A DNA stretch of 64,000 bases from Rickettsiales bacterium (GCA_965222525.1 OZ244955.1:256025-320024), one strand, 5' to 3'. Shown: positions 8,795 to 62,410, counted from the stretch's first letter. Numbers and translations are program-made. Notes: a model not told the origin generated them from the sequence alone.

Positions 8795-8823
8795 TGTCAT
8801 CCTGAACCTGTTTCGGGATGATA
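8795..8823. repeat. Family A solo hairpin (TIR-only copy)
   Basis: TGTCATCCTGAACCTGTTTCGGGATGATA is the family A terminal sequence folded on itself. Confidence 0.7.
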
Positions 8824-8875
8824 AAAAGGAAAAACCATAGCGAATTACCTACATAAGGATGACCTGCCGGATAAT

Positions 8876-9454
8876 GTGGCGTTCAATGGTGACCTGGCGG
8901 TTGATACTGAAACCCGTGGGCTGAATATCGCATTGCGTGACAGGCTGTGTGTTGTACAACTTTCCGATGGTGGTGGCAATGCGCATCTGGTACAGTTTGA
9001 CGGCGAGAACTACGATGCGCCAAATCTGCGGAAGCTGCTTGCAGATGAAGGGCGTACCAAAATCTTCCACTATGCCCGCTTTGACCTGGCTGCTATCAAG
9101 CATTACCTGGATGTTGATATCCGCAATATATATTGTACCAAAATCGCATCCCGACTGGCCCGCACCTATTCCGACAAGCACGGGCTGAAGGAGTTATGCA
9201 AGGAATTTCTGGGGGTGGATTTATCCAAGCAGCAGCAATCCTCATATTGGGGGGCGAAGGATTTATCCAAGGCGCAGATAAGTTATGCCGCAGCAGATGT
9301 ATTATATCTCCATAAGTTGCGGGACAAGCTTAATGTAATACTTGAGGATGATAACCGCATTGAACTGGCACAGCAATGTTTTGACTGCCTGCCCGCCCGT
9401 GTTGCACTGGACTTGCAAGGCTGGAGCGATACTGATATATTCTCGCATAATTAG
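8876..9454 (+). CDS. DEDD-family 3'-5' exonuclease (small RNase D-like)
   Basis: 192 aa, GTG start. Carries LAVDTETRGL (Exo I), FHYARFDLAAI (Exo II) and YAAADVLYLHKL (Exo III). Confidence 0.75.
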   Translation: MAFNGDLAVDTETRGLNIALRDRLCVVQLSDGGGNAHLVQFDGENYDAPNLRKLLADEGRTKIFHYARFDLAAIKHYLDVDIRNIYCTKIASRLARTYSDKHGLKELCKEFLGVDLSKQQQSSYWGAKDLSKAQISYAAADVLYLHKLRDKLNVILEDDNRIELAQQCFDCLPARVALDLQGWSDTDIFSHN

Positions 9455-9456
9455 AA

Positions 9457-9701
9457 CCCCTCCCGCTTGCGGGAGGGGAGAAAATCTGAGGAAACCATAT
9501 CTTCCGTAGCTTTAGCGCAGGAGGATTGTTTCCCGGATTTTCGGGGAGGGAATGATGAAGTGCTGAGTGTTTAGTGCTGAGTGTTTTCAACAGGAGACCT
9601 AGCACTCAACACTCCGCACTTTGCACTTACCGTATTCCCCCACCAGAAATTCGGGAATTAAAATTCCTCGAATTTCTTGCCTCCCCCGCAAGCGGGGGAG
9701 G
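9457..9701. repeat. Composite of nested repeats: family C copy, a second small palindrome, and an inverted deleted family C copy
   Basis: 9457-9552 is family C. 9558-9620 has AGTGCTGAGTGTT...AGCACTCAACACT inverted repeats. 9635-9701 is a reverse-orientation family C lacking the central hairpin. Confidence 0.8.
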
Positions 9702-9745
9702 TGTACAGTAGAATTAACCTGCCCAGCCATTACACACCCCCTCCC

Positions 9746-10819
9746 ATGCTACATGTTCCATTCAGTCTCGTAATCAATCGCCTCGCAGTGACGGCGTGGG
9801 TGTTGCTGTGTATTGCTCTCTCCTTTATGGATTTATCCTTTATCTCTGACTCGATGGGTACTGACTCCGAGCATCTGCTCAATATTACATATGGCGGTGA
9901 AACCGATGGAATAGAAGGAGCGTATGGGGCTACCGCCAAGATTTTCCGCCTAATCCCCGAGGTTTTGCTGAATCCCGTTGTACTGGCGATAAGCTGTTTT
10001 GCGCTGGTATTGTTTATGAAGGATTTCCGCCGTTATAGAACTATCGCCATGGCGATGTATATTACGCTCCCCGCCATGCTGCTATTCATGACCCGTCCGC
10101 AGAAGGAAACCATAGTTATATGCCTGACAATTATAACATTCTTTATATTTCGTTCGCGATTGTCGGAGATGAAGAAAATATTGCTTATGACCGCACTTTA
10201 CGGTGCATACGCCTATTTTATCCGCGAATATTATTTCATTATTATCGTATTCTTTTTCGGCCTGTATTTTATGAAAAAAATGCACGGGATGATTCGCCTG
10301 GCGATTATACCGATTTCACTGGCAGCCCTTGCGTTACTGCCGTCTGATATTTTCCTGGAAACCCAGGGGATGCGTGATTTTGTCAATTACTGGCTGGGAA
10401 CGGATAAACGGGTGATACGTACGGCATTTGTCAACCCCTACCCTGCCGACAATGCCTGGCATTTTATCCTGAACTACGGATATGCCGCCCTGCGGCTGCA
10501 TCTGCCGATATTTTTCATGGCGCCAACATATAAGGAGGTGCTGCATATCGCCTCCGTATGGCTGTTTATCTGGTTTATCTGGATTGGTATGAATGCTCGC
10601 AAGGATATAACAGGGGCAGGAAAAAAGCGGGAAAGCCTGGGTAACAATGCAATATTATCTTCTCAACTTGCACTTGCGCATGTGCTGACCCTGCTTATAT
10701 TTGAACCTGATTTAGGTAGTTATTTAAGACACTTAACATCTATTTTCTTGTATCTTACTCCAAGTATGCTATTATACGACACTGGTAAACATAGGAAGAT
10801 TCGTATCGTTACCAGCTAG
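9746..10819 (+). CDS. Polytopic membrane protein, possibly a polysaccharide polymerase/ligase-like protein
   Basis: The track ORF starts at 9677, inside the repeat (MPPPQAGEV is repeat-encoded). I prefer the Met at 9746 (MLHVPFSLV). About 10 hydrophobic helices. The function call rests only on topology and the TagF-like neighbour. Confidence 0.45.
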   Translation: MLHVPFSLVINRLAVTAWVLLCIALSFMDLSFISDSMGTDSEHLLNITYGGETDGIEGAYGATAKIFRLIPEVLLNPVVLAISCFALVLFMKDFRRYRTIAMAMYITLPAMLLFMTRPQKETIVICLTIITFFIFRSRLSEMKKILLMTALYGAYAYFIREYYFIIIVFFFGLYFMKKMHGMIRLAIIPISLAALALLPSDIFLETQGMRDFVNYWLGTDKRVIRTAFVNPYPADNAWHFILNYGYAALRLHLPIFFMAPTYKEVLHIASVWLFIWFIWIGMNARKDITGAGKKRESLGNNAILSSQLALAHVLTLLIFEPDLGSYLRHLTSIFLYLTPSMLLYDTGKHRKIRIVTS

Positions 10820-10946
10820 ATAGACTTTCAGGAAGTCTTTCCGACTTTCCAGTGTAATTATCAGCAACTGATTGTAGAATATCAGGACGGCAAAAGGTCG
10901 CGGTGTATTTTTTTGGTCAAAATCAATTAGCTAATAAAAGGTTAAA

Positions 10947-12191
10947 GTGCATACAGGTATAAATAAAATTGTCTGGCATATGTTTCATGAGTTGTTTTAC
11001 CTGCTCATACTGCCGCTGGACCTGCTTGTCCCCAAACGTAAGGATTACTGGATTTTTGCACTCAAGCACGGCATTCCGTGGGGAGATAATCTGCGTAATA
11101 TTTTCGAGCGTGCGCTGGAAGACCCTGACATTACCCCAATTCTGCTTACCAACGGTTCTGACCCGCGTGATGACATAAAACAGCTCTATGCCGACAGGGG
11201 AATTGATATAATAACCGCAAAACGTATGAGTCTGCGCGGGGTTGGCTATTTCCTGCGCTCGAAATTCTGCTTTATCAGTTTTAGCAACATGGAATTATAC
11301 AGCGTTCTTATCCCGCAATTCCGCCATAATATTATCAATTTGTGGCATGGAATAAGGGTAAAGGCGGTTGGGTTTGCACTGCCGAAAAAGCGCAATTACC
11401 GCAGTGTACGCAAGTTCCTCAACCCGCATTACATATATTGTGACTATTATATTTCCAGTTCCGAGGTGGACAAGCTCGCCATGTGTACTACAATGATGCA
11501 TAACCCTCATAAAGTCTGGGTTACAGGCTCACCGCGCAATGACTATCTGTTTGAGGAAACCAGACTGCCCCCCGATTTGCAGGCAGAAGACGAGCATCTG
11601 AAAAAGGTACTGAATGGGCGGAAACTGGTGCTTTATTCGCCTACTTTCAGGGAATGGCGGGATAATGTTAACCCTATTTCCGATGAGAAGAATGCTGCAG
11701 CACTGGCGAAACTGGCGGAGAAATATGGTGCGGTATTCGGCATCCGCAAGCACTGGAGTGACCATGCACTGCAAATAGTAGACGGGCTGGGGATTATAGA
11801 CTGCGGCAACAAGGAATTTCCCAATTCACAGATTGTAATCCGGAATGCTGATATAATGATTTCCGATTATTCGAGCATATGGGTGGATTACCTGCTGCTC
11901 AACCGCCCTGTAATCGGCTATTGCTATGATTATGAACGTTATCTGCGCGACAGGTCGCTTTTATTCCGATATGATAACATCTTCCCGGGTGAGATAACCT
12001 ATAATTTCGACGAGCTTGTATCTGCCCTGGAATCCGTGCTGAAAGGCGAGGAAAGTGCCGATTCAAAGGCTCTTCGTAAATCCTCCCGTAAATTCTTCTT
12101 CAGCCATTTCGACAACCAGTCCACCACCCGCGTCTACACCAAAATCCAGGAGACTTATTTTGGTAAGAAGTGTCATTCTTCTAACAACTGA
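10947..12191 (+). CDS. CDP-glycerol/ribitol glycerophosphotransferase (TagB/TagF family)
   Basis: 414 aa. LVLYSPTFREW and MISDYSSIWVDYLLLNRPVIGYCYDYERY match the TagF-family catalytic region. Confidence 0.7.
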   Translation: MHTGINKIVWHMFHELFYLLILPLDLLVPKRKDYWIFALKHGIPWGDNLRNIFERALEDPDITPILLTNGSDPRDDIKQLYADRGIDIITAKRMSLRGVGYFLRSKFCFISFSNMELYSVLIPQFRHNIINLWHGIRVKAVGFALPKKRNYRSVRKFLNPHYIYCDYYISSSEVDKLAMCTTMMHNPHKVWVTGSPRNDYLFEETRLPPDLQAEDEHLKKVLNGRKLVLYSPTFREWRDNVNPISDEKNAAALAKLAEKYGAVFGIRKHWSDHALQIVDGLGIIDCGNKEFPNSQIVIRNADIMISDYSSIWVDYLLLNRPVIGYCYDYERYLRDRSLLFRYDNIFPGEITYNFDELVSALESVLKGEESADSKALRKSSRKFFFSHFDNQSTTRVYTKIQETYFGKKCHSSNN

Positions 12192-12211
12192 CCTCTGACA
12201 ACTGATAACTA

Positions 12212-14128
12212 TCACCCCACCCCGCTCATGAGGCGCTGGGTTTCGTAGAGGATTTTACCGCCGATAGGAGCGGCGATTTGTGAACCGTAACCGCCATGTT
12301 CTATCACCACTGACACCGCATAGCGCGGGGCGTGCACCGGCGCAAAGCCTATAAACAGCGCATGATAGCGCTCCTGCCGCTCGGTGGGGATATATTTGAA
12401 AGTCTTGTGACTCAACACCTGCGCCGTACCGGTTTTTCCTGCAAACTCCCTTCCTTCAACGGTGACCCGGTTGCGATATACCAGCCCTCGCCAGTGATTT
12501 ACCACCATATCCATACCATCCAGCACCGTTTGCAAATGTTCCTGTGATATACCTTCAATCTGCGGGAATTCCTCACGCTCTCGCGGTACCAGTATCTTCC
12601 GGCCACCGTCAATCGAAACCAACTCCTTCTCCGGCTCCCTTATTACCAGCCGCGGTACCACAGCCCGCCCGCCACTTGCCATACGTGCCGCCGCTACTGC
12701 AAGCTGTAACGGAGTTGACAGAACATAACCCTGTCCGATACCGGTATTAAGCGTCTCGCCCTGATACCAGGGCTCGCCGATTACAGCCGGTTTCCATCTG
12801 GTATCGGGAATAACCCCTGCTTTCTCGCCTGGCAATTCTATACCCAAAGGTTCATCAAACCCAAGCTTGCGGGCGGTTTCAGCAATTTTGTCAACCCCAA
12901 GCAATTTGGCGGTATGATAGAAATACACATTGCATGACTGCGCAATCGCACGTTTTAAATCAAGCTCACCATGCCCGTCACGATACCAGCAATGGAAATT
13001 ACGATCACCGAATGTATAGAATCCCGGGCAGAATACCGTCGTATCCGCATTGATTATACCATTCTGTAATGCCGCCAATGCAACTATGGTTTTGAATGTT
13101 GAGCCGGGAGGATATTCTGCCGCAACCGCCTTGTTGATAAAGGGCAAATCCGGGTCTTTATTAAGATAGTTCCAGTATTCCGGCTCTATCTTGCGCACAA
13201 ATTTATTGGAATCATAACCCGGTACCGAAACCATAGCCAGTACATCGCCGGTTTTTATATCCAGCACTACCGATGAACCGCCCTCAGTCTGCAAGCCACC
13301 CTTGCCGATAAGCTGTGCATGGACAAATTGCTGTAACTCTATATCTATAGTCAGCCGTGCATCTTCCCCGGGCACACCCTCATTGGTATCCAGCTCGCGC
13401 ACATGACTGCCGCGTGCATTCACCTCGACCTGCCGTACACCGGCCTTGCCACGCAAACTATCCTCCAGCGCCCGCTCCAGCCCCGTCTTGCCCACCCTGA
13501 ATTCGGGATGGCGGATGATATTGCCTTCCTTGAGGTCTTCCTCGGAAGGCTCGCTCAAATAGCCGGTTATGTGCGACATTGTCTCGCTATGCAGGTAATG
13601 GCGCACCTCCAGCGATTCTATGTTAACTCCCGGCAGATCGGGAATATTTACCTCGATTTTGGCAACCTTGTCCCAGTCCAGAAAATCCTCGATCAAAAGC
13701 TGTTCGTTATTGGGCAAATCGGCAAGCTGCTTTATCAGCTCTTCCTGTCTTTCTACCGGCAGGTCAATCAGGTGGGACAGATTTGCTATAGTTTCCTCCT
13801 GTATGGAGGTGTCGGTGGTTTTATTCCCCCGTAATATCCGGCTGGTAATGCTCGCCGGCGGGCGTACCGAAGGGTCGAGCAGAAGGCGGTAGCGCGGGGT
13901 ACCTTCCGCCACTATTACCCCGTTGCGGTCAAGGAACTTACCTCGACGCGGTAATACAGGATATAGCCGCACACGGTTATCCTCGGACAGGGTCTGATAG
14001 CGGTCGGCCTCACTGAATTGCAGGTAATACAGCCGTGAGCCGAGTGCCGAAAGCAGGCACAGCTTCGCCCCGCCAAGCACTACCGCCCGCCTGGTCAACC
14101 CCCGTGATTTTATAATCTGACTACGCAT
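12212..14128 (-). CDS. mrdA: Penicillin-binding protein 2 (elongation transpeptidase)
   Basis: 638 aa. N-terminal anchor, then SxxK (GSTFK), SxN (QSCN) and KTG (GKTGTA) motifs. Confidence 0.9.
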   Translation of the reverse strand: MRSQIIKSRGLTRRAVVLGGAKLCLLSALGSRLYYLQFSEADRYQTLSEDNRVRLYPVLPRRGKFLDRNGVIVAEGTPRYRLLLDPSVRPPASITSRILRGNKTTDTSIQEETIANLSHLIDLPVERQEELIKQLADLPNNEQLLIEDFLDWDKVAKIEVNIPDLPGVNIESLEVRHYLHSETMSHITGYLSEPSEEDLKEGNIIRHPEFRVGKTGLERALEDSLRGKAGVRQVEVNARGSHVRELDTNEGVPGEDARLTIDIELQQFVHAQLIGKGGLQTEGGSSVVLDIKTGDVLAMVSVPGYDSNKFVRKIEPEYWNYLNKDPDLPFINKAVAAEYPPGSTFKTIVALAALQNGIINADTTVFCPGFYTFGDRNFHCWYRDGHGELDLKRAIAQSCNVYFYHTAKLLGVDKIAETARKLGFDEPLGIELPGEKAGVIPDTRWKPAVIGEPWYQGETLNTGIGQGYVLSTPLQLAVAAARMASGGRAVVPRLVIREPEKELVSIDGGRKILVPREREEFPQIEGISQEHLQTVLDGMDMVVNHWRGLVYRNRVTVEGREFAGKTGTAQVLSHKTFKYIPTERQERYHALFIGFAPVHAPRYAVSVVIEHGGYGSQIAAPIGGKILYETQRLMSGVG

Positions 14129-14151
14129 TACATATGCCTAAAATTTGCAAT

Positions 14152-14298
14152 TGTCATGCTGAACTCGTTTCAGCATTCATCTGTCATAATCCTAAGACTG
14201 GCAATTGTGACGGAGTTTACCAAAATACATAGAACTGGTTATCTGTGATCAATACTGGTCATTGGATAAATAGATCCCGAAACAAGTTCGGGATGACA
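14152..14298. repeat. MITE-like element, family A
   Basis: TGTCATGCTGAACTCGTTTCAGCATTCAT ... GATCCCGAAACAAGTTCGGGATGACA terminal inverted repeats; 147 bp. Confidence 0.85.
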
Positions 14299-14312
14299 AT
14301 CAATAAAGCATA

Positions 14313-15575: not shown

Positions 15576-15630
15576 ACTACCCAGCCAAATTGCACCCAAA
15601 AAGACTAAAGGCTAGAAACTACACTACAAC

Positions 15631-16488: not shown

Positions 16489-16583
16489 TGCCTGCTAACC
16501 GCCAGCCTACTATAAATAGTGTTACCGACTGGCTTATGCCACAAAATATATTGTAAAACAAATAATTTTTTTACGGGGATAAA

Positions 16584-17983: not shown

Positions 17984-18082
17984 GGCTTGCCACCATAATT
18001 TATAGTGTTTTGAACTTTTTAATTGGGGTATTATAGTTATAAAATAGAGAGTTAAAGCAAACTCAGCATAGCAGCAAACAAT

Positions 18083-18697: not shown

Positions 18698-18703
18698 AAA
18701 GCA

Positions 18704-19637: not shown

Positions 19638-19756
19638 AACTCAGTTCCTTTATTCTGTCTATCATCCTGCGGAAATTACGAAGTAATTTAGCGCAGGATC
19701 CAGTATTTATATTTTCTGGATTCTGCTCGCCTTGCATACGCAAGACAGCAGAATGA

Positions 19757-20314
19757 CTATTTCTTATCCTCTTTTTTACCAGTCTGACCCGTAGTCTTTG
19801 CTGTTTTTTTGGTCGCTGCTTCCTTCTTATCAGCAGTCTCCTTATTATCCTTTTTCGTTTTCGCAGCTGGTTTGTCCTCTGCCTTTTTGACTTCAGCTTT
19901 TTTCACGGCAGGTTTTTTAGCCTCCGCCTTCTTTTCCGTTTTGGCTTCTGCTTTCTTCTCCACCGGCTTTGCTGCATTTTTCGGAGCGGCCTTCGCTTTC
20001 AGCCCCTCACCTATATCCTGAATCCTGACTATGGAAACCTGCTGACGATGGCCTTTCTTCCGGCGATAATTATGACGACGCTTTTTCTTGAAAACGATGA
20101 TTTTATCATCTTTTTTCTGCTCGACAATCTCGGCAGATACCTTCATCCCCTTCACTACAGGCTCACCGACGGTTACTTTCTTACCATCACCAACCGCCAA
20201 TACCTCATCAAATACGACAGTCGCACCGGCATCACCGGCGATTTTCTCAAGCTTGACCGTATCGCCCCTGGCAACCTTATACTGCTTTCCGCCTGTTTTT
20301 ATTACTGCAAACAT
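19757..20314 (-). CDS. rplU: 50S ribosomal protein L21 with Lys/Ala-rich C-terminal extension
   Basis: [14 protein letters not shown]... L21 core of about 100 aa, then an about 80-aa KAEKK-type tail. Confidence 0.9.
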
Positions 20315-26258: not shown

Positions 26259-26568
26259 GAGGGTATCTAAATTCTACTAGCATGGCCTGCAAATAACTGT
26301 TTCCTGCGCTTCCGTTGCTCACGTACGAAAAAAGTACGCTGCGCTACAGTTCTCGGAAACAATTATTTTCGCCACATGCTAGCGAATTTATAGTCGTTCC
26401 AAATAATTTCCGTGTATTTTACAACCAGCTAGATTTGTATTAGAGCAAGTGAAATTTCGCAGCTCGTAGTTTACCCTACTTGCAAGAAATTTACACGCAG
26501 CTATAAGGCAAATTGAGCAGTTACAAAATACACGGAAATTATTTGGAACGACTATAGATACCCTCTCA
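26257..26568. repeat. Family D palindromic element interrupted by a nested IS630-type MITE
   Basis: The outer arms GAGAGGGTATC (26257-26267) and GATACCCTCTC (26557-26567) are reverse complements. The D core at 26269-26388 has AAATTC.CTAGCATG ends. It is related to copies at 42945-43086 and 41101-41137. Confidence 0.8.
26389..26556. mobile_element. IS630-derived MITE (168 bp) nested in family D element
   Basis: TIRs are TATAGTCGTTCCAAATAATTTCCGTGTATTTT ... AAAATACACGGAAATTATTTGGAACGACTATA. They are near-identical to the TIRs of the IS630 remnant at 57991-58684. The element is bounded by TA. Confidence 0.8.
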
Positions 26569-26574
26569 ATATTC

Positions 26575-27486
26575 TTATAATTTCCGCCGAACACCCAAAA
26601 TATGACACACGGCGCTTACCAGAAGCGGGCGGTTGAGGGTATAGAAATGGAAATGGTCAACCCCCTCCTCGCGCAGGATTCTGCACTGTTCCGCCGCTAT
26701 CATCGCTGATACTATATTACGCATTTTCGGGTTATTGTCAATTCCACCCAGCAGGTTATGCACCCATTCCGGCACTGTAGCCTGACATTTTTTACAAAAA
26801 TTCAGAAACATCGAAAAGTTCGATACCAGCGGGATACCCGGAATAATCGGCACATTAACCCCTGCCGCAGCAGCCTTGTCACGAAAATCCAGAAACAGCC
26901 CGGTATCAAAGAAAAGCTGGGTAATTGCGCGGTCAACACCAATATCCGTCTTCTGTTTGAGATATTCCAGGTCTTTCTCGGCACTTTCCGCCTCGGGATG
27001 CACCTCGGGAAAACAGGCCACGGAAATCTCAAAATCCGCTATATTTTTCAAACCTTTAACCAGATCAGCGCAATAAGCATAACCATCCGGATGCGGTATA
27101 TATTTTCCCGCCTGGCCAGCATCTTCGGGCGGGTCACCACGCAGTGCCACTATATGCTTTATACCGGAATCCCAGTATTCACGGGCAATATCGTCAATCT
27201 CCCCGCGGCTTGCCCCTACACATGTCAGATGCACCGCCGGAGTCAGCGAAGTTTCGTCCCTGATGCGCTTTACCGTATTATATGTACGCTCACGGGTACT
27301 CCCCCCCGCACCGTAAGTAACCGATACAAATTTCGGCTGTAACGCCTCCAGCTCCTTGATGGTATTCCATAAAACCTGCTCTGCCTCATCATCCTTCGGC
27401 GGAAAAAACTCAAAGGATACCTCCGGCGGTGGCAGCTCCAGAAACTCCTCAAACCGGGAGAGATGTTTGTTTAGTGTTTTGCTCAT
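26575..27486 (-). CDS. metF: 5,10-methylenetetrahydrofolate reductase
   Basis: VSFEFFPPK...FVSVTYGAGGSTRERT...HLTCV motifs. Confidence 0.9.
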   Translation of the reverse strand: MSKTLNKHLSRFEEFLELPPPEVSFEFFPPKDDEAEQVLWNTIKELEALQPKFVSVTYGAGGSTRERTYNTVKRIRDETSLTPAVHLTCVGASRGEIDDIAREYWDSGIKHIVALRGDPPEDAGQAGKYIPHPDGYAYCADLVKGLKNIADFEISVACFPEVHPEAESAEKDLEYLKQKTDIGVDRAITQLFFDTGLFLDFRDKAAAAGVNVPIIPGIPLVSNFSMFLNFCKKCQATVPEWVHNLLGGIDNNPKMRNIVSAMIAAEQCRILREEGVDHFHFYTLNRPLLVSAVCHILGVRRKL

Positions 27487-29880: not shown

Positions 29881-30037
29881 TGTCACCCCGGATGGCATGC
29901 TTTCTCCAAATCTATGATTTGGCAAGAAAGCACCATTCTCGGGGTTACAGGTAAGTAACGTGAATGTGTAATAACCCCGAGAACGCTATTTTCTGACTAC
30001 ATCAAAGATGTAGAGAAAATATGCGTCCGGGGTGACA
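29881..30037. repeat. MITE-like element, family B (nested palindromes)
   Basis: TGTCACCCCGGA.GCAT...TTCTC outer TIRs, plus inner inverted repeats (CTCGGGGTTA.../...TAACCCCGAG); 157 bp. Confidence 0.85.
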
Positions 30038-30838: not shown

Positions 30839-31582
30839 TCAGTTGGCAGTTGACCGATTATACTCCCCTATCACCTCTTCTGGCTTACCGTCCATAACAA
30901 TTTTGCCACCCTGCATCCATATACAGCGATTGCACACATTCTCAATTACATCGGTGCTGTGATTGACCATTAAGGCAACTGACACCGAATCCAGTTTTTC
31001 CTTTATCAATGCAGTGGCTTTCTGCTGAAAACCAACATCACCGGTAGCAAATATCTCATCAAGTATCAATATCTCCGGCTCCTGGAACACCGCCAGTGCA
31101 AATGCCAACCGCGCCCGCATCCCGGTACTATATGCTTTCAAAGGCTGGTCTATACTTTCCCGCAATTCGGTAAATTCTATAACCTTTTCCTCAACGTCAC
31201 GATTGTAATGTACAAGCTGGCCGGTATATAGCAGGCCAATCCTGATATTCTGACGGCCGGTGAATTCCGGCTCAAGCCCCATTCCCATCTCGATAATCGG
31301 GGTAATCTTGCCGGTGATACTAACCGTACCGCTGGTTGGCGGGTAAATTCCGGCTATTACTTTCAGCAGTGAACTTTTGCCGGAACCGTTGCGACCGATA
31401 ATTCCTACCCGTTCGCCATGATTCACATCCAGAGACACCCCCTGCAGGATTTTTATGCAAGTATCACGCCCGCCGACCTTACCCTTGCCCACAACCATCT
31501 GCTTCAGGCTCTGTGCCCGCAACAGCGTATCCACACCATCAACATGAATATCTTTCAGATGGATCTTTGCCTTTTCTGTCAT
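30839..31582 (-). CDS. Polysaccharide/teichoic-acid-type export ABC ATPase (Wzt/TagH/KpsT-like)
   Basis: Walker A GRNGSGKSSLLK, signature YSTGMRARL, Walker B ILILDE. Confidence 0.85.
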   Translation of the reverse strand: MTEKAKIHLKDIHVDGVDTLLRAQSLKQMVVGKGKVGGRDTCIKILQGVSLDVNHGERVGIIGRNGSGKSSLLKVIAGIYPPTSGTVSITGKITPIIEMGMGLEPEFTGRQNIRIGLLYTGQLVHYNRDVEEKVIEFTELRESIDQPLKAYSTGMRARLAFALAVFQEPEILILDEIFATGDVGFQQKATALIKEKLDSVSVALMVNHSTDVIENVCNRCIWMQGGKIVMDGKPEEVIGEYNRSTAN

Positions 31583-31723
31583 CCTGAACTTGTTTCAGGA
31601 TCTATCAAGCAGAGTCCTGATAATAGTAATTGCAACTAATCTTATCAAAATTTCAAACTGACCATCAATTAATATGGATTCCGTTGTTGAATGGATGGAT
31701 CCTTCACCTCGTTCAGGATGACA
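31577..31723. repeat. MITE-like element, family A
   Basis: TGTCATCCTGAACTTGTTTCAGGATCTAT ... CCTTCACCTCGTTCAGGATGACA; 147 bp. Its first 6 nt are the reverse complement of the ATG-ACA start of the ABC ATPase gene. Confidence 0.85.
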
Positions 31724-31737
31724 ACCAACTCCGCCTG

Positions 31738-35014: not shown

Positions 35015-35131
35015 AATGCCTGGTTCCTTTATGTAAGGAGGGTGTAGATATACCGTTTTCCCTTGTTAGTCAAGCGGGAATTGAGGAGTTTAAGAATACA
35101 GGAAGTCAGGGATACAAGAAATTCCAACGGT

Positions 35132-35280
35132 TGTCATCCTGAACTTGTTTCAGGATCCATATATCAAAGTAACAATCGTTAACTGTTCATAGTTGACAAT
35201 ACCAAAATACATTAGGTACAAACCAATTGCCAGGATTCAGTAATGGGATGAATGGATCCTGAAACAAGTTCGAGATGGCA
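35132..35280. repeat. MITE-like element, family A
   Basis: TGTCATCCTGAACTTGTTTCAGGATCCAT ... ATGGATCCTGAAACAAGTTCGAGATGGCA; 149 bp. It is preceded at 35090-35128 by a family E fragment (GAGTTTAAGAATACAGGAAG...). Confidence 0.85.
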
Positions 35281-35309
35281 TACACCACTAGCTCCGTATT
35301 GGATGACAA

Positions 35310-41034: not shown

Positions 41035-41100
41035 GGGATTTTGGCCGTTGGCTATCAGCTATTGGCCTTTGGTATAAGAAATACTCTAAACAGTACCGTC

Positions 41101-41137
41101 AAATTCGCCACATGCTGGCGAATTTTAAGAAACCCTC
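41101..41137. repeat. Family D element, internally deleted mini-copy
   Basis: AAATTCGCCACATGCTGGCGAATTTTAAGAAACCCTC is the two D ends joined, plus one outer arm. It lies immediately after the rpmG stop. Confidence 0.6.
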
Positions 41138-42944: not shown

Positions 42945-43086
42945 GGGATTTCTTAAAATTCGCTAGCATGAGGCGAAAATGGCTGTTTTCGAGAACCGTA
43001 CTGCATCGTACTTAAGGGTACGTGAAGCACGGAAGCGCAGAAAACAGTTATTTGCAGCCCATGATAGTAGAATTTGAAGAAATCCC
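42945..43086. repeat. Family D palindromic element, intact copy
   Basis: GGGATTTCTT AAAATTCGCTAGCATG ... CATGATAGTAGAATTT G AAGAAATCCC. Opposite orientation to the 26257 copy. It abuts the stop codon of the 43086 gene. Confidence 0.8.
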
Positions 43087-43388: not shown

Positions 43389-43564
43389 AGCTTTACTCCT
43401 TGAATAATGTGGTTGCGACCCCACTATAGAAACCTGAAGGTCTCCATATCCGTATATTCTACAATCTAAGGTATCCTGTTACAATAAAACAAGCAACACT
43501 GCAACAAATATGGCACGTTATAACCTGTTTTTTTATATAAATCTATATGTAAAATTTTTCTGAT

Positions 43565-43714
43565 TGTCATCCTGAACCTGTTTCAGGATCCATTTATCAA
43601 AGCTATGATAACTGACAGGTTATAAACATACTCTTCAAAATACAGGAACCTGTGCTTTTGTTACCAAGATTATGTCATAGGAAAAACAGATCCTGAAACA
43701 GGTTCAGGATGACA
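43565..43714. repeat. MITE-like element, family A
   Basis: TGTCATCCTGAACCTGTTTCAGGATCCAT ... AGATCCTGAAACAGGTTCAGGATGACA; 150 bp. Confidence 0.85.
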
Positions 43715-43724
43715 TAAAGCACCA

Positions 43725-44747
43725 TCAACCAGACTTATGTGGGTCGAAGGCGTCACGGACTGCCTCACCTATAAATATCAACAGGCTCAGCATTACCGCA
43801 ACTACTACAAAGCCGGTTATTGCCAGCCATGGTGCTTCCAGATTGGCCTTGCCCTGCGCCAGCAATTCCCCCAGCGACGGAGAGCCGGGTGGCAGACCGA
43901 ATCCCAGGAAATCCAGCGCAGTAAGAGTGGTAACTGAACCGTTCAGTATAAATGGCATAAAGGTAAGTGCCGCGACAAAGCTGTTAGGTAATATATGGCG
44001 GAACAGTATCTTGTGCTCACGCACTCCGAGCGCCCGTGCCGCCCGCACATAATCCATATTACGGGTCTTCAGACATTCCGCCCGCACCACCCCTACCAGC
44101 GACATCCAGCTAAACAGCAGCATAACCGCCATCAGCCACCAGAAATTCGGCGTAATAAAGCTGGTCATAATTATAATCAGGAACAGTACCGGCAGACTGC
44201 TCCATATCTCGATGAAGCGCTGGAAAATCAGGTCAGTCCAGCCACCAAGATAGCCCTGCACCGCACCGGCAACTATACCTATTACCGAGCTGAATATAGT
44301 GAGAACCAGCCCGAATAATACCGATATACGGAAGCCGTATATAAGCCTGGCCACCACATCTCGTCCCTGGTCATCGGTGCCAAGCCAGTTTTCACTACTA
44401 GGCGGTGCGGGGGCAGGTACCGGCAGGTCATAATTGATAGTGGAATAGCTATATTTCACCGGCGGCCAGAGCATCCAGCCATTTTTCTCTATAATATCAG
44501 CTATATAGGGATCGCGATAATCGGTTTCGGTATCGAAATCCCCGCCAAAAACGGTTTCGGGATAGGATTTGAAAACCGGAAAATAAACCCCTCCCTTATA
44601 TCCCACCATAATCGGCTTGTCATTGGCGATGAATTCGGCACATAAGGTTAGCATAAATAATATCAGAAATATCCATAACGACCAGTATCCACGGCGGTTC
44701 TGACGGAATTTACGCCATCTTCTTCTGGTTATGGGGGACAGGCTCAT
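43725..44747 (-). CDS. yejE: ABC transporter permease, DppC/OppC family (YejE-like), orphan
   Basis: 340 aa. N-terminal RRRWRKFRQNRRGYWSLWIF...ANDKPIMVGYKGGVYFPVF and an EAA-type loop (YVRAARALGVREHKILFRHILPN). No partner permease, ATPase or binding-protein gene is nearby. Confidence 0.7.
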   Translation of the reverse strand: MSLSPITRRRWRKFRQNRRGYWSLWIFLILFMLTLCAEFIANDKPIMVGYKGGVYFPVFKSYPETVFGGDFDTETDYRDPYIADIIEKNGWMLWPPVKYSYSTINYDLPVPAPAPPSSENWLGTDDQGRDVVARLIYGFRISVLFGLVLTIFSSVIGIVAGAVQGYLGGWTDLIFQRFIEIWSSLPVLFLIIIMTSFITPNFWWLMAVMLLFSWMSLVGVVRAECLKTRNMDYVRAARALGVREHKILFRHILPNSFVAALTFMPFILNGSVTTLTALDFLGFGLPPGSPSLGELLAQGKANLEAPWLAITGFVVVAVMLSLLIFIGEAVRDAFDPHKSG

Positions 44748-44909
44748 TTTTGTTGCAAGGCTGGATTGTTAGGGAAAACAGGGGGAAATATGGGTAAAAT
44801 ATGCGTAAATCTTGACTAAAGCATGATTTAAGGGTAGTTTTATAATTGAAATATGGGTATAATTGGACGTGAGAATAGGTTGTAGTGCCGGGAAGTTCAA
44901 TAGATATCT

Positions 44910-45072
44910 TGTCATCCTGAACTTGTTTCAGGATCCATCAGGCAAGATATTGAGAACTAACGGTTACGACTAAGCTTACCAAAATATCAAAATAAGCCAT
45001 CAACCACCAAGATTAGGTCATGGGGTGAATGGATCCTGAAACAGCAAAAGTATAGCTTTTGCCAGGATGACA
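44910..45072. repeat. MITE-like element, family A variant with extra hairpin in right TIR
   Basis: TGTCATCCTGAACTTGTTTCAGGATCCAT ... ATGGATCCTGAAACA[GCAAAAGTATAGCTTTTGC]CAGGATGACA; 163 bp. Confidence 0.85.
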
Positions 45073-45100
45073 TAAAAATTACCCTGTAAAATGTTATACT

Positions 45101-52296: not shown

Positions 52297-52373
52297 GTTC
52301 TACCAACCATAATACTACTGTATATGTTTTTCAAAGCTTGTTTTGTGGAGGGAAGTGATTATATTGCGGGGTT

Positions 52374-53678: not shown

Positions 53679-53702
53679 GAGGAGAAATTAGGGATACGTG
53701 GC

Positions 53703-53860
53703 TGTCACCCCGGACGCATATTTTCTCTGAATCTTTGATTCAGTCAGAAAATAGCGTTCACGGGGTTATTGCGTAGTCACGTACTGTTGCTTATAACCCC
53801 GAGAATGGTGTTTTCTTAGCGAAATCAAAGATTTCGAGAAAACATCCATCCGGGGTGACA
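53703..53860. repeat. MITE-like element, family B
   Basis: TGTCACCCCGGACGCATATTTTCTC ... GAGAAAACATCCATCCGGGGTGACA with inner CACGGGGTTAT/ATAACCCCGAG repeats; 158 bp. Confidence 0.85.
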
Positions 53861-53908
53861 AAATACTAGACTCTAGACTCAAAACTCTAGCCACTAAAGG
53901 AGAAAAAC

Positions 53909-54904: not shown

Positions 54905-55108
54905 TTTCATATAATATAAATTGAGATGATCAGCTTACTTAGCAAAGATATCTTAAAAACTTTTGGTAAAAAAATATAGTATTTCCTAATTTGAGGTAAA
55001 AGTTAGGGACATAAACTTCATAGGGTATAAAATTGCAGGCATAAAACCAAGCGGTCGTGCTGTACAAAAATCGCTCAACCCGTTCAAACCCTTAAAATAT
55101 TTTTAAAG

Positions 55109-57733: not shown

Positions 57734-57990
57734 AAAGTTTTCCTTGTTATTAAGAGATATGGGTTAAAATGTATAACCAGAATACCACAAGATAGTTAAC
57801 AAACAATTAATAAGTCATAAAAAATGCAGCTATTTTATTAAATTCTACTAATTTTTTACTAAAAATACATTTAGTACAAAAAATAAACAAAATTCAAGAG
57901 TGTATTTTTAATTGTTCCAAATAATTACCGTATATTTTGTTATTATCCATTGGGTTATTTATTTCTGTTAATTTTACTTCATACTTTATC

Positions 57991-58684
57991 TATAGTCCTT
58001 CCAAATAACTTCCGAATAGTTTAAGATTTTTGCGGCACCATTTTGCAGGTAGTAAGATGACATATATAGTATTTCCAATTTTAATTGGGAATACTATGAA
58101 GACCTGCGAAGCAGGGATTCCACCGCGCAAGCGAGTGTAATTTTACTTACGTAAAATTAGAAAATACTATAGTATTGATTTGTGCGAACGAGTTGTATCG
58201 TTTGTTTCTGGTGGTGGCAGCAAGCTTGAGGCCTCTCGTCGCTTTTCGGTCAGCGTCTGGTGCGTCAATGACTGGTGGTCTCGGGATGATTTACACCCCA
58301 AACCGCATGGTCGCAGACAGCGCAAACTGAACAGGGACGCTGTTAAGCGTCATTTCGAAGTTGTGTCCAAAATCTACTATAATTATGGACAATGCCGCAT
58401 TCCACAAAAAGAAGGATATTGTGGAGATGGCTGAAAAAGCAGGGCATGAAGCCATTTTCCTGCCTCCGTATTCACCAGACTTTAATCCCTTCGGGTATAA
58501 TTCCCCGCCCCTTGGGGCGAAAGAATAATATAATCCGAACTGATGCCCCGTAGCTTGCTACGGGGTAGTTCATTCCAATCGAAAAAGTCTTCGCTCATCT
58601 CAAAAAACAAAGGGCAAACGCTCCGCTTGGAAAACCAATCGACGACATAATCAAGTCATACGGAAATTATTTGGAAGGACTATA
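57991..58684 (+). mobile_element. Degraded IS630/Tc1-mariner-family insertion sequence (transposase pseudogene with internal deletion, frameshift and MITE insertions)
   Basis: Left TIR TATAGTCCTTCCAAATAACTTCCGAATAG at 57991; right TIR CGGAAATTATTTGGAAGGACTATA ending at 58684. An HTH-like N-terminal ORF spans 58180..58434. In another frame lies MDNAAFHKKKDIVEMAEKAGHEAIFLPPYSPDFNP (58385-58489). IEKVFAHLKKQRAN resumes at 58578 after an about 88-bp hairpin-rich insert. Total length is 694 bp. Confidence 0.75.
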
Positions 58685-59431
58685 AAAAACGTTACAGACG
58701 GATAGCGATCTATATTACATTATTTTTCCAATATAGTATTTGCTAGGATGCGTCAATGCTGGAAATTAAGGGAACCATGTTGAGGAGATTGCAAAATCAG
58801 AAAGATAATTACGTGTTGAAGTTGCCAAAGGACCGCGGAATGACTGACAGAAGGGGAAATTCAAGGTTTTGTTGTGGTGATAGAATGCCGAGCGGGAACC
58901 TTATAACCCTAACTTATGCTGCACACTACTTCGTCGCTAAGATGCTCAAGTCCACATGTACATTTAACTACGCCTACAGCTCTGCACTTCTCGCTCCTCA
59001 TATTGTTTTGCATAAGCGAATTTATAGAGGTATCCAAGCATAGTCCGGCATAACTGCAACCAGCATGCGAACCTAAAAACCCTATGAATTTCAACATGAT
59101 ATCAAAAAAACATGAATCGCTATGCCCATGGCAGAAATTCTAACAAAAAGAATCACCAAATAATATTTCACCCCCTCCTCCCAAACTCATAACTTTCATC
59201 TCCAGCCCCCTTAAGGTAAACCAAACCTTAAGTATTTTTGCAACACCTGCATGTTTTTTACTTTTTTTACACTTCCTTGATCCAGATCAAGGACAAAAAA
59301 AATCAGTTGTGCTATTACACTCGGCCAAGTCGTTAATACTTCGTTAAAGTATATACGGTTTTTTACTAATATAACATGCCTCTGGGGCTGTTAATTTTTT
59401 TCAATTTTTTAACTTTTTAAGGAGTTCTGTA

Positions 59432-60697
59432 ATGGATCAATTAAAAAAGACTTTACTTCTGGGTGCTTCGGCACTCGCTCTTGCTGTTACACCTGCATTT
59501 GCGGACGATAACGTAGATGACGGTATTGATGGCAATGAAAACAATGACAATACTGTTAACCAGGTTGGAGATGACAACAACTCTAACAATGGTGGCGGTA
59601 ATGACAACAACACCTCTGATAATGGAAATGACAATAACACTTCCGATAACGGAAATGATAACAACACTTCCAATAACGGAGATGACAACAATGACGGCAA
59701 TACTGTTGCTTCCGGCAATGGTTCTGGCGACGATGACAACGAAAACAATGCATTCTCCAAGAATGACATTGATACCGATGTTGACGCTTCTGACAATTCA
59801 GACAACAGCAATGACGGCAATGATAACAACACCTCTAATAATGGTGATGATAACAATGACGGCAATACTGTTGCTTCCGGTAACGGTGCTGGTGATGACG
59901 ACAACGAAAACAACGCTTTCTCCAAAAACGATGTAGACGTTGATGTTGACGCTTCTGATAACTCAGATAACTCCAATGACGGAAATGATAACAACACTTC
60001 CAACAATGGAGATGACAACAATGATGGTAACACCATTGCATCTGACAACACCTCCAATGACGGAAATGATAACAACACTTCCAACAACGGAGATGATAAC
60101 AATGATGGTAACACCATTGCTTCCGGTAACGATGCTGGTGACGACAACAACGAAAACAATGCATTCTCCAAGAATGACATTGATACCGATGTTGACGCTT
60201 CAGACAACAGCACCGGAAAAGGTGATGACAACAACGAAAGCAATGCATTCTCCAAGAATGACGTAGACGTTGATGCATCTGACAACTCTGATAATTCAGA
60301 CAACAGCACCGGTAAAGGCGATGATAACAACGAAACCAACGCCTTCTCCAAGAATGATGTTGATGTGAATGCCAGTGAAAATAATATGAATTCCAAAAAC
60401 ACTGACAACAGCACCAACACACTTACTGACAACAGCACTGACAGCAGCCAGGATGACAGCGTAAGCTTCGGCGATGCTAAAACCCTGACAGCTTCTGTTC
60501 TGGATGCTTCTGTTTCCGGAAACTCTGTTACAGTAGCAGTTGGTGGTGCCAGAAGAATTGGCGTCTATGAAGCTGACAACACCATCCAGGGAGATGCTTT
60601 CCGCAACTCCAGAGGTGTTAATGCTAACGCACAAAACACTGGTAACAGTGCAAGCGTTCAGCAAGCTATTACTATCAAGGCTGACATCCATAACTAG
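59432..60697 (+). CDS. Secreted Asp/Asn-rich tandem-repeat protein with C-terminal Gly/Asn/Gln module (P1)
   Basis: AAGGAG RBS. Signal peptide MDQLKKTLLLGASALALAVTPAFA. Five copies of N.NAFSKND[IV]D.DVDASDNS embedded in DNNTSNNGDDNNDGNT units. C-terminus DNTIQGDAFRNSRGVNANAQNTGNSASVQQAITIKADIHN. Confidence 0.8.
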   Translation: MDQLKKTLLLGASALALAVTPAFADDNVDDGIDGNENNDNTVNQVGDDNNSNNGGGNDNNTSDNGNDNNTSDNGNDNNTSNNGDDNNDGNTVASGNGSGDDDNENNAFSKNDIDTDVDASDNSDNSNDGNDNNTSNNGDDNNDGNTVASGNGAGDDDNENNAFSKNDVDVDVDASDNSDNSNDGNDNNTSNNGDDNNDGNTIASDNTSNDGNDNNTSNNGDDNNDGNTIASGNDAGDDNNENNAFSKNDIDTDVDASDNSTGKGDDNNESNAFSKNDVDVDASDNSDNSDNSTGKGDDNNETNAFSKNDVDVNASENNMNSKNTDNSTNTLTDNSTDSSQDDSVSFGDAKTLTASVLDASVSGNSVTVAVGGARRIGVYEADNTIQGDAFRNSRGVNANAQNTGNSASVQQAITIKADIHN

Positions 60698-60826
60698 TTG
60701 TAATTTCAACTATATGGGTGACTCTTGCTAGTCACGAGATTGTTGCGGGCGGGTATCCTGTGCTCCTCCTGCCCGCAGCAAAACAGATGATAGATGATGG
60801 ATTATAGATGATAGAGAAAGGGATTT

Positions 60827-60988
60827 TGTCATTCTGGCAAAAGCCGTACTTTTGCTGTTTCAGGATCCATTTGTCAAAACCCTGATAGCTGGCAATTCTG
60901 TAAAAATTATCAAAATGCGATTGTTGACCATAAACTACAAAAACCCTGCCATTGGATAAATGGATCCTGAAACAAGTTCAGGATGACA
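60827..60988. repeat. MITE-like element, family A variant with extra hairpin in left TIR
   Basis: TGTCATTCTGG[CAAAAGCCGTACTTTTGC]TGTTTCAGGATCCAT ... ATGGATCCTGAAACAAGTTCAGGATGACA; 162 bp. Confidence 0.85.
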
Positions 60989-61023
60989 GTTATTCCCTAA
61001 AAGGGTTTGCAAGGAAAAACAAA

Positions 61024-61488
61024 ATGGCAAAATTCAACCAAATAATACCGGTTCTGGCGGTCGGTACCGCTCTTGTTGCTGCTCCTGCAGCATATGCAGA
61101 GGAAACACAGATATACTCCATGCAATATATGGCGGTAGAGGATAATGACGCCACCTTCATACAGCATTCCGGTGTGATGGTAAAAGGCGGCGATGCCGAA
61201 GTGGAAATTACAATAGCAGATAATAATGAAGAGGAAACATTCGGCATGGTGATATCCGATGATGAATTACAAACATCACGAGGTGCCTCAGGTATTGAAA
61301 CTCTCAATGTTTCAATAATGAAGGCTACATCCAAGAATAACTCGGTGGGGGATAACTCGGTTACCGGCGATAATGTCATAAGCCAGGGTGCGTTCGGCAA
61401 TTCGCAGGGAGTTATAACTTCCGTACAGAACAGCGGAAATAACGTAACCATCCAGTCCTCAACTATCGTCAATATGTCGATTCAGTAG
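61024..61488 (+). CDS. Secreted protein with VISDDELQTSRGA motif and C-terminal Gly/Asn/Gln module (P2)
   Basis: The track ORF starts in the MITE (60952). I prefer the Met at 61024 (AAGGA RBS). Signal peptide MAKFNQIIPVLAVGTALVAAPAAYA. C-terminus DNVISQGAFGNSQGVITSVQNSGNNVTIQSSTIVNMSIQ. Confidence 0.75.
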   Translation: MAKFNQIIPVLAVGTALVAAPAAYAEETQIYSMQYMAVEDNDATFIQHSGVMVKGGDAEVEITIADNNEEETFGMVISDDELQTSRGASGIETLNVSIMKATSKNNSVGDNSVTGDNVISQGAFGNSQGVITSVQNSGNNVTIQSSTIVNMSIQ

Positions 61489-61511
61489 AGTCGGAGTTGC
61501 AATTTATTAAC

Positions 61512-61576
61512 TGTCACCCCGGACGCATATTTTCTCCAAATCGGAGATTTGGAGAAAATATGCGTCCGGGGTGACA
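61512..61576. repeat. Family B mini-copy (outer TIR hairpin only)
   Basis: TGTCACCCCGGACGCATATTTTCTCCAAATCGGAGATTTGGAGAAAATATGCGTCCGGGGTGACA; 65 bp. Confidence 0.85.
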
Positions 61577-61584
61577 AAGTGAGC

Positions 61585-62298
61585 ATGAATTCTATATCAA
61601 AAAAATTCCTGTTGATTTCTGCAGTTACAGCGGCGGTTACATTCACTTCAGGCCAGTCGGACGCAGCCAATATGCCGTTCTTCGGCGGTAACGGGTCGTT
61701 TAATGTAAAGGTGGAAAGCTACAAGGAAGCCCGGTTCCGTTCGGTAGTACGCCAGGATTATGATTTCAGTTGCGGTTCTGCTGCTGTGGCTACCTTGCTC
61801 AAATATCACTACGACCATCCTGTAGAGGAGAAGGAAGTACTGGATGCCATGTTCGAGGATGGCGACAAGGAAAAAATCAAGAGCAAGGGCTTTTCCATGC
61901 TTGATATGAAAAACTTCCTCAAAAACAAGGGATATTCCGCTGATGGCTACCGTACTGCGCTGGACAAGCTGACCGAGGTCGGAATCCCCGCAATCGTGCT
62001 GATTAACAATAACGGCTATATGCATTTCGTGGTGGTCAAGGGGGTGGATAAGGAAAATGTACTGGTCGGTGACCCTTCGCTCGGCAAAAAGGTTATGGCC
62101 AGGGATGAATTCGAGAAAATGTGGAATGGCATATTGTTCGTAATCAAGAGCCATAAAGCGGTCGGAAATCAATATTTCAACAGAAAAAAGGACTGGCGGC
62201 TGTATCAGGAAGCCCTGTTCGATTCGGCACTAAGCAATGAATCGCTGGCAAACTTCACGATACATATACAACCGGCACCGAATTATTTTAATTTTTAA
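61585..62298 (+). CDS. Periplasmic (signal-peptide-bearing) C39-family cysteine peptidase
   Basis: I prefer the Met at 61585 (the track start 61549 lies in the repeat). Signal peptide MNSISKKFLLISAVTAAVTFTSGQSDA. Q57-x5-C63 (VRQDYDFSCGSAAVATLL), H147 (GYMHFVVVKG) and D163 (VLVGDPS). Confidence 0.8.
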   Translation: MNSISKKFLLISAVTAAVTFTSGQSDAANMPFFGGNGSFNVKVESYKEARFRSVVRQDYDFSCGSAAVATLLKYHYDHPVEEKEVLDAMFEDGDKEKIKSKGFSMLDMKNFLKNKGYSADGYRTALDKLTEVGIPAIVLINNNGYMHFVVVKGVDKENVLVGDPSLGKKVMARDEFEKMWNGILFVIKSHKAVGNQYFNRKKDWRLYQEALFDSALSNESLANFTIHIQPAPNYFNF

Positions 62299-62299
62299 A

Positions 62300-62410
62300 T
62301 GTCATCCTGAACTTGTTTCAGGATCCATCTACTACGGGAGTTTAAGAATACAAGAGCCAAGAAATCAGGAAATTTCCTGCATTCTTATTTTCCTGTATTC
62401 TTAAGTTCTT
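62300..62410. repeat. Truncated family A element interrupted by family E palindrome
   Basis: 62300-62328 is the family A left TIR TGTCATCCTGAACTTGTTTCAGGATCCAT. 62333-62410 is GAGTTTAAGAATACAAG...CCTGTATTCTTAAGTTC with self-complementary ends; a related fragment lies at 35090-35128. Confidence 0.7.

Follow-up and report, generated by a model that had tools for sequence, protein, structure and literature searches.

Results

A hairpin-ended repeat family between the genes of the window

The DNA analyzed here (the window) is a stretch of 64,000 nucleotides from a Rickettsiales bacterium (GCA_965222525.1 OZ244955.1:256025-320024), and the spacers between its genes carry a repeat, family A, in the form of ∼150-bp units whose two ends are inverted copies of one short hairpin. 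We consider it likely that these units are gene-less inverted doublets, accompanied by two single hairpins, of an Ssn-related motif (SRM) and thus belong to the nuclease-repeat system described by Chenal et al. (2025; PMC11893778). The repeat had been noticed in a first-pass annotation made from the sequence alone, and the observation is real: the 29-nt terminus TGTCATCCTGAACTTGTTTCAGGATCCAT has nine matches with ≤3 mismatches in the window compared to none in 100 shuffles. All six of the full copies listed there were found (14152-14298, 31577-31723, 35132-35280, 43565-43714, 44910-45072, and 60827-60988), and these six are the family A units rather than the "at least seven" that had been claimed. 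The reduced forms reported near 8795 and 62300 were each identified by the covariance model described below as a single hairpin unit. The "related hairpin" reported at 19664-19699 is also real, but it belongs, as left arm, to a further doublet at 19662-19757, the seventh, which is of a different subtype.

A covariance model of the single hairpin (R1), built from 62 single arms, recovered 12 simple arms in the window, each with E < 1e-6. The loop-expanded arms at 45030-45070(-), 19662-19702(+), and 19717-19757(-) were matched only near E = 1, and the degenerate left arm at 60827-60867(+) was recognized by eye only and not by the model. In total the 64-kb window has 16 arms, which make up seven doublets (six of family A plus 19662-19757) and two singlets (Table 1). 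All doublets and singlets are intergenic and several start 2-30 nt past a stop codon, in agreement with the earlier remark that the copies lie between genes and often at gene ends.

Table 1. Hairpin units of the window, with covariance-model or folding support and gene context.
Unit	Position	Strand	Support	Context
Single hairpin, slightly degenerate (GTCATCCTGAACCTGTTTCGGGAT)	8793..8822	+	R1 30.8 bits, E 2.4e-7	∼115 nt from 6S RNA gene
Family A doublet	14150..14300	+	Arms 14150-14179(+) E 1.7e-10, 14271-14300(-) E 1.4e-12	Between divergent PBP2-like and Na+/H+ exchanger genes
Doublet of other subtype	19662..19757	.	Folds -12.4 kcal/mol per arm; weak covariance-model matches, E 1-2	
Family A doublet, right arm degenerate	31575..31726	+	Arms E 8.7e-13, 4.2e-7	Begins 15 nt past DegT-type aminotransferase stop; ABC ATPase gene downstream of doublet
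Family A doublet	35130..35282	+	Arms E 6.2e-13, 8.1e-9	∼30 nt downstream of recG stop codon
Family A doublet	43563..43716	+	Arms E 9.6e-12, 3.6e-11	11 nt downstream of yejE-like permease stop
Family A doublet, right-arm loop replaced by CAAAAGCTATACTTTTG	44908..45074	+	Left arm E 8.8e-13; right arm 45030-45070 E 0.9	Upstream of yejE-like gene
Family A doublet, left arm with extra hairpin CAAAAGCCGTACTTTTG and weakened stem	60824..60990	+	Right arm E 1.6e-12	
Single hairpin, perfect consensus	62298..62327	+	E 1.3e-12	Starts 2 nt after peptidase C39 stop

The units differ in the state of their arms. In the doublet at 14150 the left stem (ATGCTGA) and the right stem (ATCCCGA) differ, yet each is self-complementary. 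The best-preserved copy, at 43563, has arms that are 91% complementary and a whole-unit DNA fold of -40.2 kcal/mol (z -10). The doublet at 19662 is composed of the arms (T)ATCATCCTGCG...CGCAGGATCCAG and GTCATTCTGCTG...CAGCAGAATC, with an inner hairpin in each loop and a spacer of 14 nt. The extra hairpin CAAAAGCYRTACTTTTG reported for the copies at 44910 and 60827 is indeed common to both, but it replaces the right-arm loop in 44910-45072 and the left-arm loop in 60827-60988; the internal orientation of the two units is the same even though the extra hairpin sits in opposite arms. The doublet at 60824 appears as inverted repeat I5, 92% complementary to 45028-45075.

Each arm is an oriented hairpin found across bacteria

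Read 5' to 3', each arm consists of GTC, a 7-bp stem starting with AT, a 7-nt loop ACNNGTT, and then C (palindrome ATCCTGA-N7-TCAGGAT; the arm type can also be written TGTCATCCTGAAC...), and the window arms fold as an 8-bp stem with a 5-nt loop at -6 to -7 kcal/mol. In a cross-genome scan with GTCATCCTGAACNNGTTTCAGGATC, using one genome per species, the exact hairpin was present in at least 120 genome stretches from about ten phyla. These included Candidate Phyla Radiation (CPR)/Patescibacteria, Bacteroidota, Sphingomonadales and other Alphaproteobacteria, and Gammaproteobacteria, among others, with Campylobacterota, Spirochaetota, Elusimicrobiota, Melainabacteria, Bacillota, and Desulfobacterota as further groups. 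By simple arithmetic, the chance expectation for 23 fixed bases in that scan is ∼0.02 matches. Searches of the literature by sequence or peptide strings returned nothing relevant.

In most loci an inverted partner follows the hairpin at a distance of 8-113 nt (61 pairs). The partner arms were picked solely by their ATGAC anchor, so the selection was independent of pairing; 96.3% of their cells were paired, and none of 500 shuffles reached the observed covariation. Stem changes were compensatory (one pair was CG in 26 arms, GC in 25, and UA in 8, and another was UA in 46 and CG in 13), and GTCAT and the loop stayed fixed while the stem letters varied. Across 62 arms, G4, C6, A7, and T8 were invariant and T5 and C28 were at least 90% conserved, making GTC and the 3' C the most conserved columns. 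The first-pass annotation had described the terminal inverted repeat (TIR) as itself a hairpin, and the comparison bears this out for each end independently: because the stems covary within the arm and not from one arm to the other, we conclude that each arm is a structure-constrained, self-complementary, oriented hairpin and not half of a long TIR.

The same hairpin brackets a small GIY-YIG nuclease gene

SsnA of Neisseria meningitidis is a 94-aa protein with a single GIY-YIG domain (cd10448) whose target is the repeat NTS (CGTCATTCCCGCGMAVGCGGGAATCYRG, which extends dRS3); binding requires single-stranded DNA (ssDNA) and involves one strand only, and the protein shows no activity on double-stranded DNA or RNA and no RNA binding (Chenal et al. 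2025; PMC11893778). Ssn makes its nick in the GTCAT strand, a few nucleotides 5' of the motif, as was shown for Neisseria and Wolbachia enzymes, and mutagenesis indicated that the 3 nt 5' of the palindrome matter most for cleavage and the C immediately 3' of the palindrome matters most for binding (PMC11893778). These critical positions correspond to GTC and the 3' C, the columns most conserved in the arms described here. SRMs are biased to intergenic positions and were reported near 71% of the homologues and on both sides of 42% (PMC11893778).

Among the loci with the hairpin of the window, the 61 short inverted pairs are followed in spacer length by two of 326 and 355 nt, each of which encloses an open reading frame (ORF) of 91-97 aa encoding a GIY-YIG domain only. 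For the reverse test, 80 metagenomic relatives of those GIY-YIG proteins were collected, of which 58 genes had at least 200 nt on both sides. An upstream "+" hairpin was present at 36 of these 58 genes, a downstream "-" hairpin at 37, and both at 30. Within 150 nt of the gene ends the hairpin-class pattern reached a density of 4.52 per kb, versus 0.09 per kb elsewhere (48-fold, p = 6e-72). The orientation was convergent for 88 of 103 hairpins, with median gaps of 31 nt on the upstream side and 20 nt on the downstream side. The GIY-YIG nuclease was the sole gene found between such ends across 200 related loci. The flanked proteins match Pfam PF01541, are 91-97 aa in length (SsnA, 94 aa), and have weak similarity to UPF0213 structures. 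The hairpin of the type described here (GAAC-loop class) lies beside 53 of the 80 related genes and a motif of the published SRM pattern beside 3 of the 80; one of these three, a homologue at 55% identity (L192), has the exact canonical NTS on its flanks.

Hairpin-bounded units are discrete and differ in placement between related genomes

Hairpin-ssn-hairpin units of 352-390 bp that are 80-88% identical to each other occur in different (meta)genomes. Their homology starts exactly at GTCAT and stops exactly at ATGAC, and their neighbors are unrelated (guaA and a HAD hydrolase gene; pilin-like genes; a response regulator gene; a nucleoside phosphorylase gene and an integrase-like gene). Two of the loci, L128 and L134, are syntenic, with a dehydratase-like gene that is 74% identical and a next gene that is 75% identical. 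An ssn unit lies between those two genes in L134, where L128 has only ∼30 nt; in L128 an 88%-identical unit is positioned upstream of the first gene, and none is present in the 226 nt available there for L134. At an orthologous intergenic site of two Pedobacter species, the number of gene-less hairpin units differs. Whether or not a unit carries the gene, its ends are the same, and the units are discrete and placed differently in related genomes. The first-pass annotation had named a lack of insertion polymorphism between strains as grounds for abandoning a mobile-element reading; because filled and empty sites and differences in array size occur in other genomes, such a lack does not apply to the element class.

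Two further settings of the units were noted. In two CPR (Levybacteria-like) lineages (L208 2950-3324; L213-L221), a unit occupies a conserved site in the thyA-folA spacer on the opposite strand, which suggests long vertical retention at that locus; this context was ruled out as a general explanation of the unrelated flanks, as it was seen in one of 82 other loci. Sphingomonad plasmids with doublets were considered as a source of empty sites and rejected, the homology breakpoints stemming from a Tn3-family end and not from the doublet. In the Sphingobium yanoikuyae plasmid NZ_CP060123.1 (L207 456-575, 605-737) a doublet of another type (GTCATCCCGGCGCATGCCGGGAC) adjoins a GAAC-loop doublet, and a Tn3-family (Tn5403-like) end ∼50 nt beyond these doublets explains the breakpoints among related plasmids.

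Family A units were copied whole, and their arms are more constrained than their interiors

The contrast between conserved termini and diverged interiors drawn in the first-pass annotation holds: the termini are ∼85% or more identical pairwise versus ∼59% for the interiors, and the arms are more constrained than the interiors. Among the six family A units, interior homology is seen in the forward orientation only (13 of the 15 pairs, with z as high as 7.5), and because this homology between copies runs in one orientation, the whole unit was copied. On the basis of interior homology, the six doublets share one absolute orientation whatever direction the neighboring genes run (chance of co-orientation, ∼1/32, two-sided), and GTCAT lies on the + strand in each of the two singlets; this may point to a replication-strand bias. 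Unit ends in the window are always T/GTCAT...ATGAC/A. No direct repeats that would represent a target-site duplication (TSD) were found at any of the seven window units or at seven ssn-bearing units elsewhere. The interior of family A gave no blastn match of ≥40 nt against all compared loci and is therefore lineage-specific. Its conserved segment ACCAAAATAC was considered as an IHF site and dismissed by eye as a misfit to WATCAANNNNTTR.

Discussion

Assignment to the Ssn/SRM system

The features that family A and its relatives share with the NTS/SRM-SsnA system are an oriented hairpin with GTC(AT) 5' and C 3' of the palindrome, intergenic copies that probably number in the hundreds (16 arms per 64 kb would extrapolate to about 500 for the 2.1-Mb genome), a distribution that spans phyla and is enriched in Sphingomonadales and in symbiont-like genomes, and, for this hairpin type in other genomes, inverted copies of the motif to either side of a ∼94-aa single-domain GIY-YIG gene. 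The window arms are, as is asked of SRMs, hairpin-forming palindromes of 20-50 nt in many copies (16 arms). The stem and loop differ, being CCTGAAC-NN-GTTTCAGG here versus TCCCGCG-MAV-GCGGGA in NTS, and unlike NTS/SRMs the window motif is arranged as ∼150-bp doublets with a conserved interior. The first-pass annotation had offered, as an alternative to its own interpretation, that the conserved ends are a protein-binding motif, and as Ssn-related motifs (PMC11893778) they would essentially be so.

In the mechanism that we propose, the predicted enzyme that recognizes the arms would be the product of an ssn gene located elsewhere on the 2.1-Mb chromosome. Hairpin-ssn-hairpin would be the coding form of the element and the ∼150-bp doublets the non-coding form, comparable to dRS3-RS-dRS3 or to REPINs. 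The doublets would have spread into the spacers between genes, each as an intact unit and without duplication of the target, and the arms, rather than the interior, would be under continuing constraint as recognition sites of the protein. Because the two arms of a doublet lie on opposite strands, the predicted nicks would fall just outside both unit ends. Such nicking may underlie the copying of the units, and the same activity might, by analogy with Neisseria, cut incoming or exposed ssDNA near the repeats.

Several points weigh against this assignment. The window contains no ssn gene (profile search, best E 2.4), so that the cognate enzyme of the source genome is only predicted; the first-pass annotation had likewise seen no partner gene in the window, and neither the Ssn profile search nor a query with an IS200-type Y1 transposase yielded a candidate there. 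The arms are putative Ssn substrates, and alteration of the palindrome sequence with retention of the hairpin abolished the activity of the Neisseria enzyme (PMC11893778). The published SRM pattern, HGTCWYN(0-2)YYVSBRHN(0-5)WNVSBRGN(0-2)RNCYNB, which is a search heuristic rather than a functional definition, has no match in the window; the consensus terminus fails it and the canonical NTS passes. The flanked proteins of other genomes are putative members of cd10448, assigned by Pfam GIY-YIG match, size, and flanking architecture. Conservation of the arms could also result from gene conversion. Finally, the mobility of the gene-less doublets is inferred from their dispersal and not from an empty site in a close relative. 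The nearest RecG relative is 65% identical and the named best matches are Rhodospirillales proteins at 55-58%, indicative of an alphaproteobacterium-like lineage, and the nearest relatives (yejE, 81-82%; RecG, 65%; L206, 72%) are too distant for a nucleotide-level comparison of empty sites.

Alternative explanations

One alternative within the same system is that the units are orphan relics, the Ssn gene having been lost and the arms persisting passively or by recombination and gene conversion without an enzyme. The lack of an ssn gene in the window agrees with this view, as does the survey of genomes with >200 SRMs, where ssnA was present in 81% and none was detectable in ∼19% (PMC11893778), and the arms at 31696, 35253, 60827, and 8793 are decayed. 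Most arms are intact, however, while the interiors have diverged down to ∼59% identity, which argues for continuing constraint on the arms and leads us to regard the relic explanation as unlikely. A role of the hairpins in transcripts, as terminators, 3'-end stabilizers, or small RNAs, would fit the units that start shortly past stop codons and the strong fold of the whole unit (-40 kcal/mol, z -10). It would not explain why the units face either way relative to genes and also lie between divergent genes, or why conservation is concentrated in the asymmetric GTC...C flanks. Only one of 12 arms is terminator-like and T-runs are absent, on which grounds the terminator motif that the first-pass annotation had entertained for the ends was rejected. 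No Rfam family corresponds to the units, two of which, in a permissive scan, resembled generic miRNA-precursor-like long hairpins far below threshold, and Ssn does not bind RNA (PMC11893778). A secondary effect of the hairpins on mRNA is possible; conservation primarily for such a role appears quite improbable.

The first-pass annotation had read family A as a MITE (miniature inverted-repeat transposable element). On the classical view, this would make the 29-nt ends the sites of a DDE transposase whose gene lies in another part of the genome and which cuts and pastes the 150-bp unit. The description of a dispersed, multi-copy, non-coding inverted-repeat unit stands, and the size, inverted ends, intergenic placement, and TG...CA-type ends, which are common in DDE elements, are all MITE-like. 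A classical MITE with transposase-binding TIRs is not supported: none of the seven units has a TSD, covariation runs within each arm, the two arms of a unit are often unlike, and single arms exist on their own. In place of an autonomous partner with a transposase, the partner with the same ends encodes a GIY-YIG nuclease, the only gene found between such ends across the 200 related loci, and we know of no transposase activity for this nuclease. Since family A lacks a TSD, support for a classical MITE is only partial, and we judge this reading very unlikely. The arms might instead be repetitive extragenic palindromic (REP) sequences and the doublets REPINs, moved by a single-copy Y1 transposase, the REP-associated tyrosine transposase (RAYT). 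This architecture fits the oriented hairpin with a fixed 5' motif, the inverted doublets, the absence of a TSD, and the intergenic placement, often at 3' gene ends, and the REP parallel was drawn in the Ssn paper itself (PMC11893778). Yet the flanked gene is a GIY-YIG and not a Y1 gene, the fixed motif is GTCAT and not GTAG, and this hairpin is nearly the same from phylum to phylum, unlike REPs, which are lineage-specific. The IS200-type Y1 query, an approximate sequence and a weak test for distant RAYTs, had no match in the window or in 206 loci. Movement by a RAYT thus deserves very little credence.

Relationship to other repeat systems

Family A resembles several known repeats in architecture. 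NIMEs (dRS3-RS-dRS3; PMC1797815) are likewise short inverted hairpin repeats that bracket 50-150-bp repeat segments in intergenic positions, and their arrays vary between genomes, as the Pedobacter arrays do. The dRS3 consensus ATTCCCN8GGGAAT differs in sequence from the arm ATCCTGA-N7-TCAGGAT, leaving only the architecture in common, and NIMEs form long arrays with >100 RS families whereas the units here are isolated and have a single interior family. NIMEs were held to be Neisseria-specific in 2007 (PMC1797815). With REP/BIME/REPIN elements and RAYTs, the shared features include an oriented hairpin whose 5' motif is fixed, an inverted doublet that acts as the unit of replication, the lack of TSDs, one coding gene flanked by repeats, and ssDNA recognition (here by analogy with Ssn). 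The differences are an HUH enzyme fold, another fixed motif, and lineage-specific hairpins in that system versus GIY-YIG and a hairpin common to phyla here. IS200/IS605 elements and PATEs also have subterminal hairpins recognized as ssDNA, no TSD, and short gene-less derivatives, but the ends of IS200/IS605 elements are not mutual inverted repeats, both of their cuts are on one strand, and their enzyme is a Y1 transposase. Bacterial MITEs (Correia, Nezha, and Rickettsia palindromic elements) are similar in size and copy number, have inverted ends, and likewise prefer intergenic positions; they possess TSDs and/or transposase-derived TIRs, whereas the ends here are autonomous hairpin motifs that also occur singly. 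The likeness to palindromic-element expansions that the first-pass annotation had drawn is apt.

Implications

Chenal et al. likened NTS-ssnA-NTS to an insertion sequence (IS), as a hypothesis only (PMC11893778). The discrete boundaries, the filled and empty sites, and the greater conservation of the unit compared to its flanking genes offer this IS-like hypothesis its first comparative support. We advance only tentatively, as a possibility that falls short of probable, that hairpin-ssn-hairpin units are a distinct class of mobile element whose sole protein is a ∼95-aa GIY-YIG ssDNA nuclease, that the doublets are their miniature derivatives inserted without target duplication, and that the presence of the hairpin in about ten phyla reflects repeated horizontal spread.

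The GAAC-loop hairpins, a large class found throughout bacteria, fall outside the published SRM search pattern, and because this class escapes that pattern the published counts of SRM genomes and of SRM-flanked Ssn genes are probably underestimates. With the likely assignment of family A to the Ssn/SRM system, an anonymous repeat family of an uncultured alphaproteobacterium-like genome acquires a place. The comparative evidence that hairpin-nuclease-hairpin behaves as a discrete mobile unit makes the question of whether Ssn drives a new kind of transposable element directly testable. The predicted enzyme and its putative recognition sequence, TGTCATCCTGAACTTGTTTCAGGATC, would also form a new enzyme/site pair for ssDNA-cutting tools.

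Other features of the window

Some observations concern the surroundings of the units. A family A doublet stands on either side of the yejE-like permease gene (43725-44747, - strand; window 43563-45074). The usual operon partners of yejE, yejA and yejB, lie next to it in the relatives L201 and L203; neither is present anywhere in the window. The arrangement could be due to rearrangement at the repeats or could be a repeat-gene-repeat configuration as discussed for Neisseria. The hairpin loop is a recurrent site of nested hairpins: the same 17-nt palindrome is found in opposite arms at 45040-45062 and 60835-60857, a whole second hairpin unit lies inside the stem-loop of another in L041, and nested hairpins likewise occur in L036. 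A palindrome, TTAAGAATACA...TGTATTCTTAA, at 62340-62405 adjoins the singlet at 62298, and a partial copy of it (GGAGTTTAAGAATACAGGAAG) is located at 35088-35105 beside the doublet at 35130.

The sole Rfam match of the window at the gathering threshold is a 6S RNA gene at 8487-8680 on the - strand (RF00013, 58.7 bits); the ORF at 8438-8800 that overlaps it was rejected as spurious. Another ORF (59432-60697, + strand, 421 aa), with no Pfam match, encodes D/N/G/S-rich tandem repeats with periods of 27 and 165 nt.

With families A through D taken together, the window is unusually repeat-rich. Family B consists of ∼155-bp inverted doublets headed by TGTCACCCCGGA..., with a long inner hairpin in each arm (29881-30037, 53703-53862, and 61512-61576). 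It follows the GTCAY-plus-hairpin logic of family A, and no link of family B to any gene was found. Its member at 61512-61576 is collapsed to a perfect 31+31-nt palindrome and looks like the product of a deletion between two arms. Family C is made up of 58-nt inverted blocks at 84-90% identity with shorter related pieces (26269-26583, 41095-41135, 42946-43075, and 57880-58022). Family D, ∼105 bp in length with CCCCGCTTGCGGGG hairpins, is present in direct and inverted copies at 6628-6731, 9450-9553, and 9634-9705.

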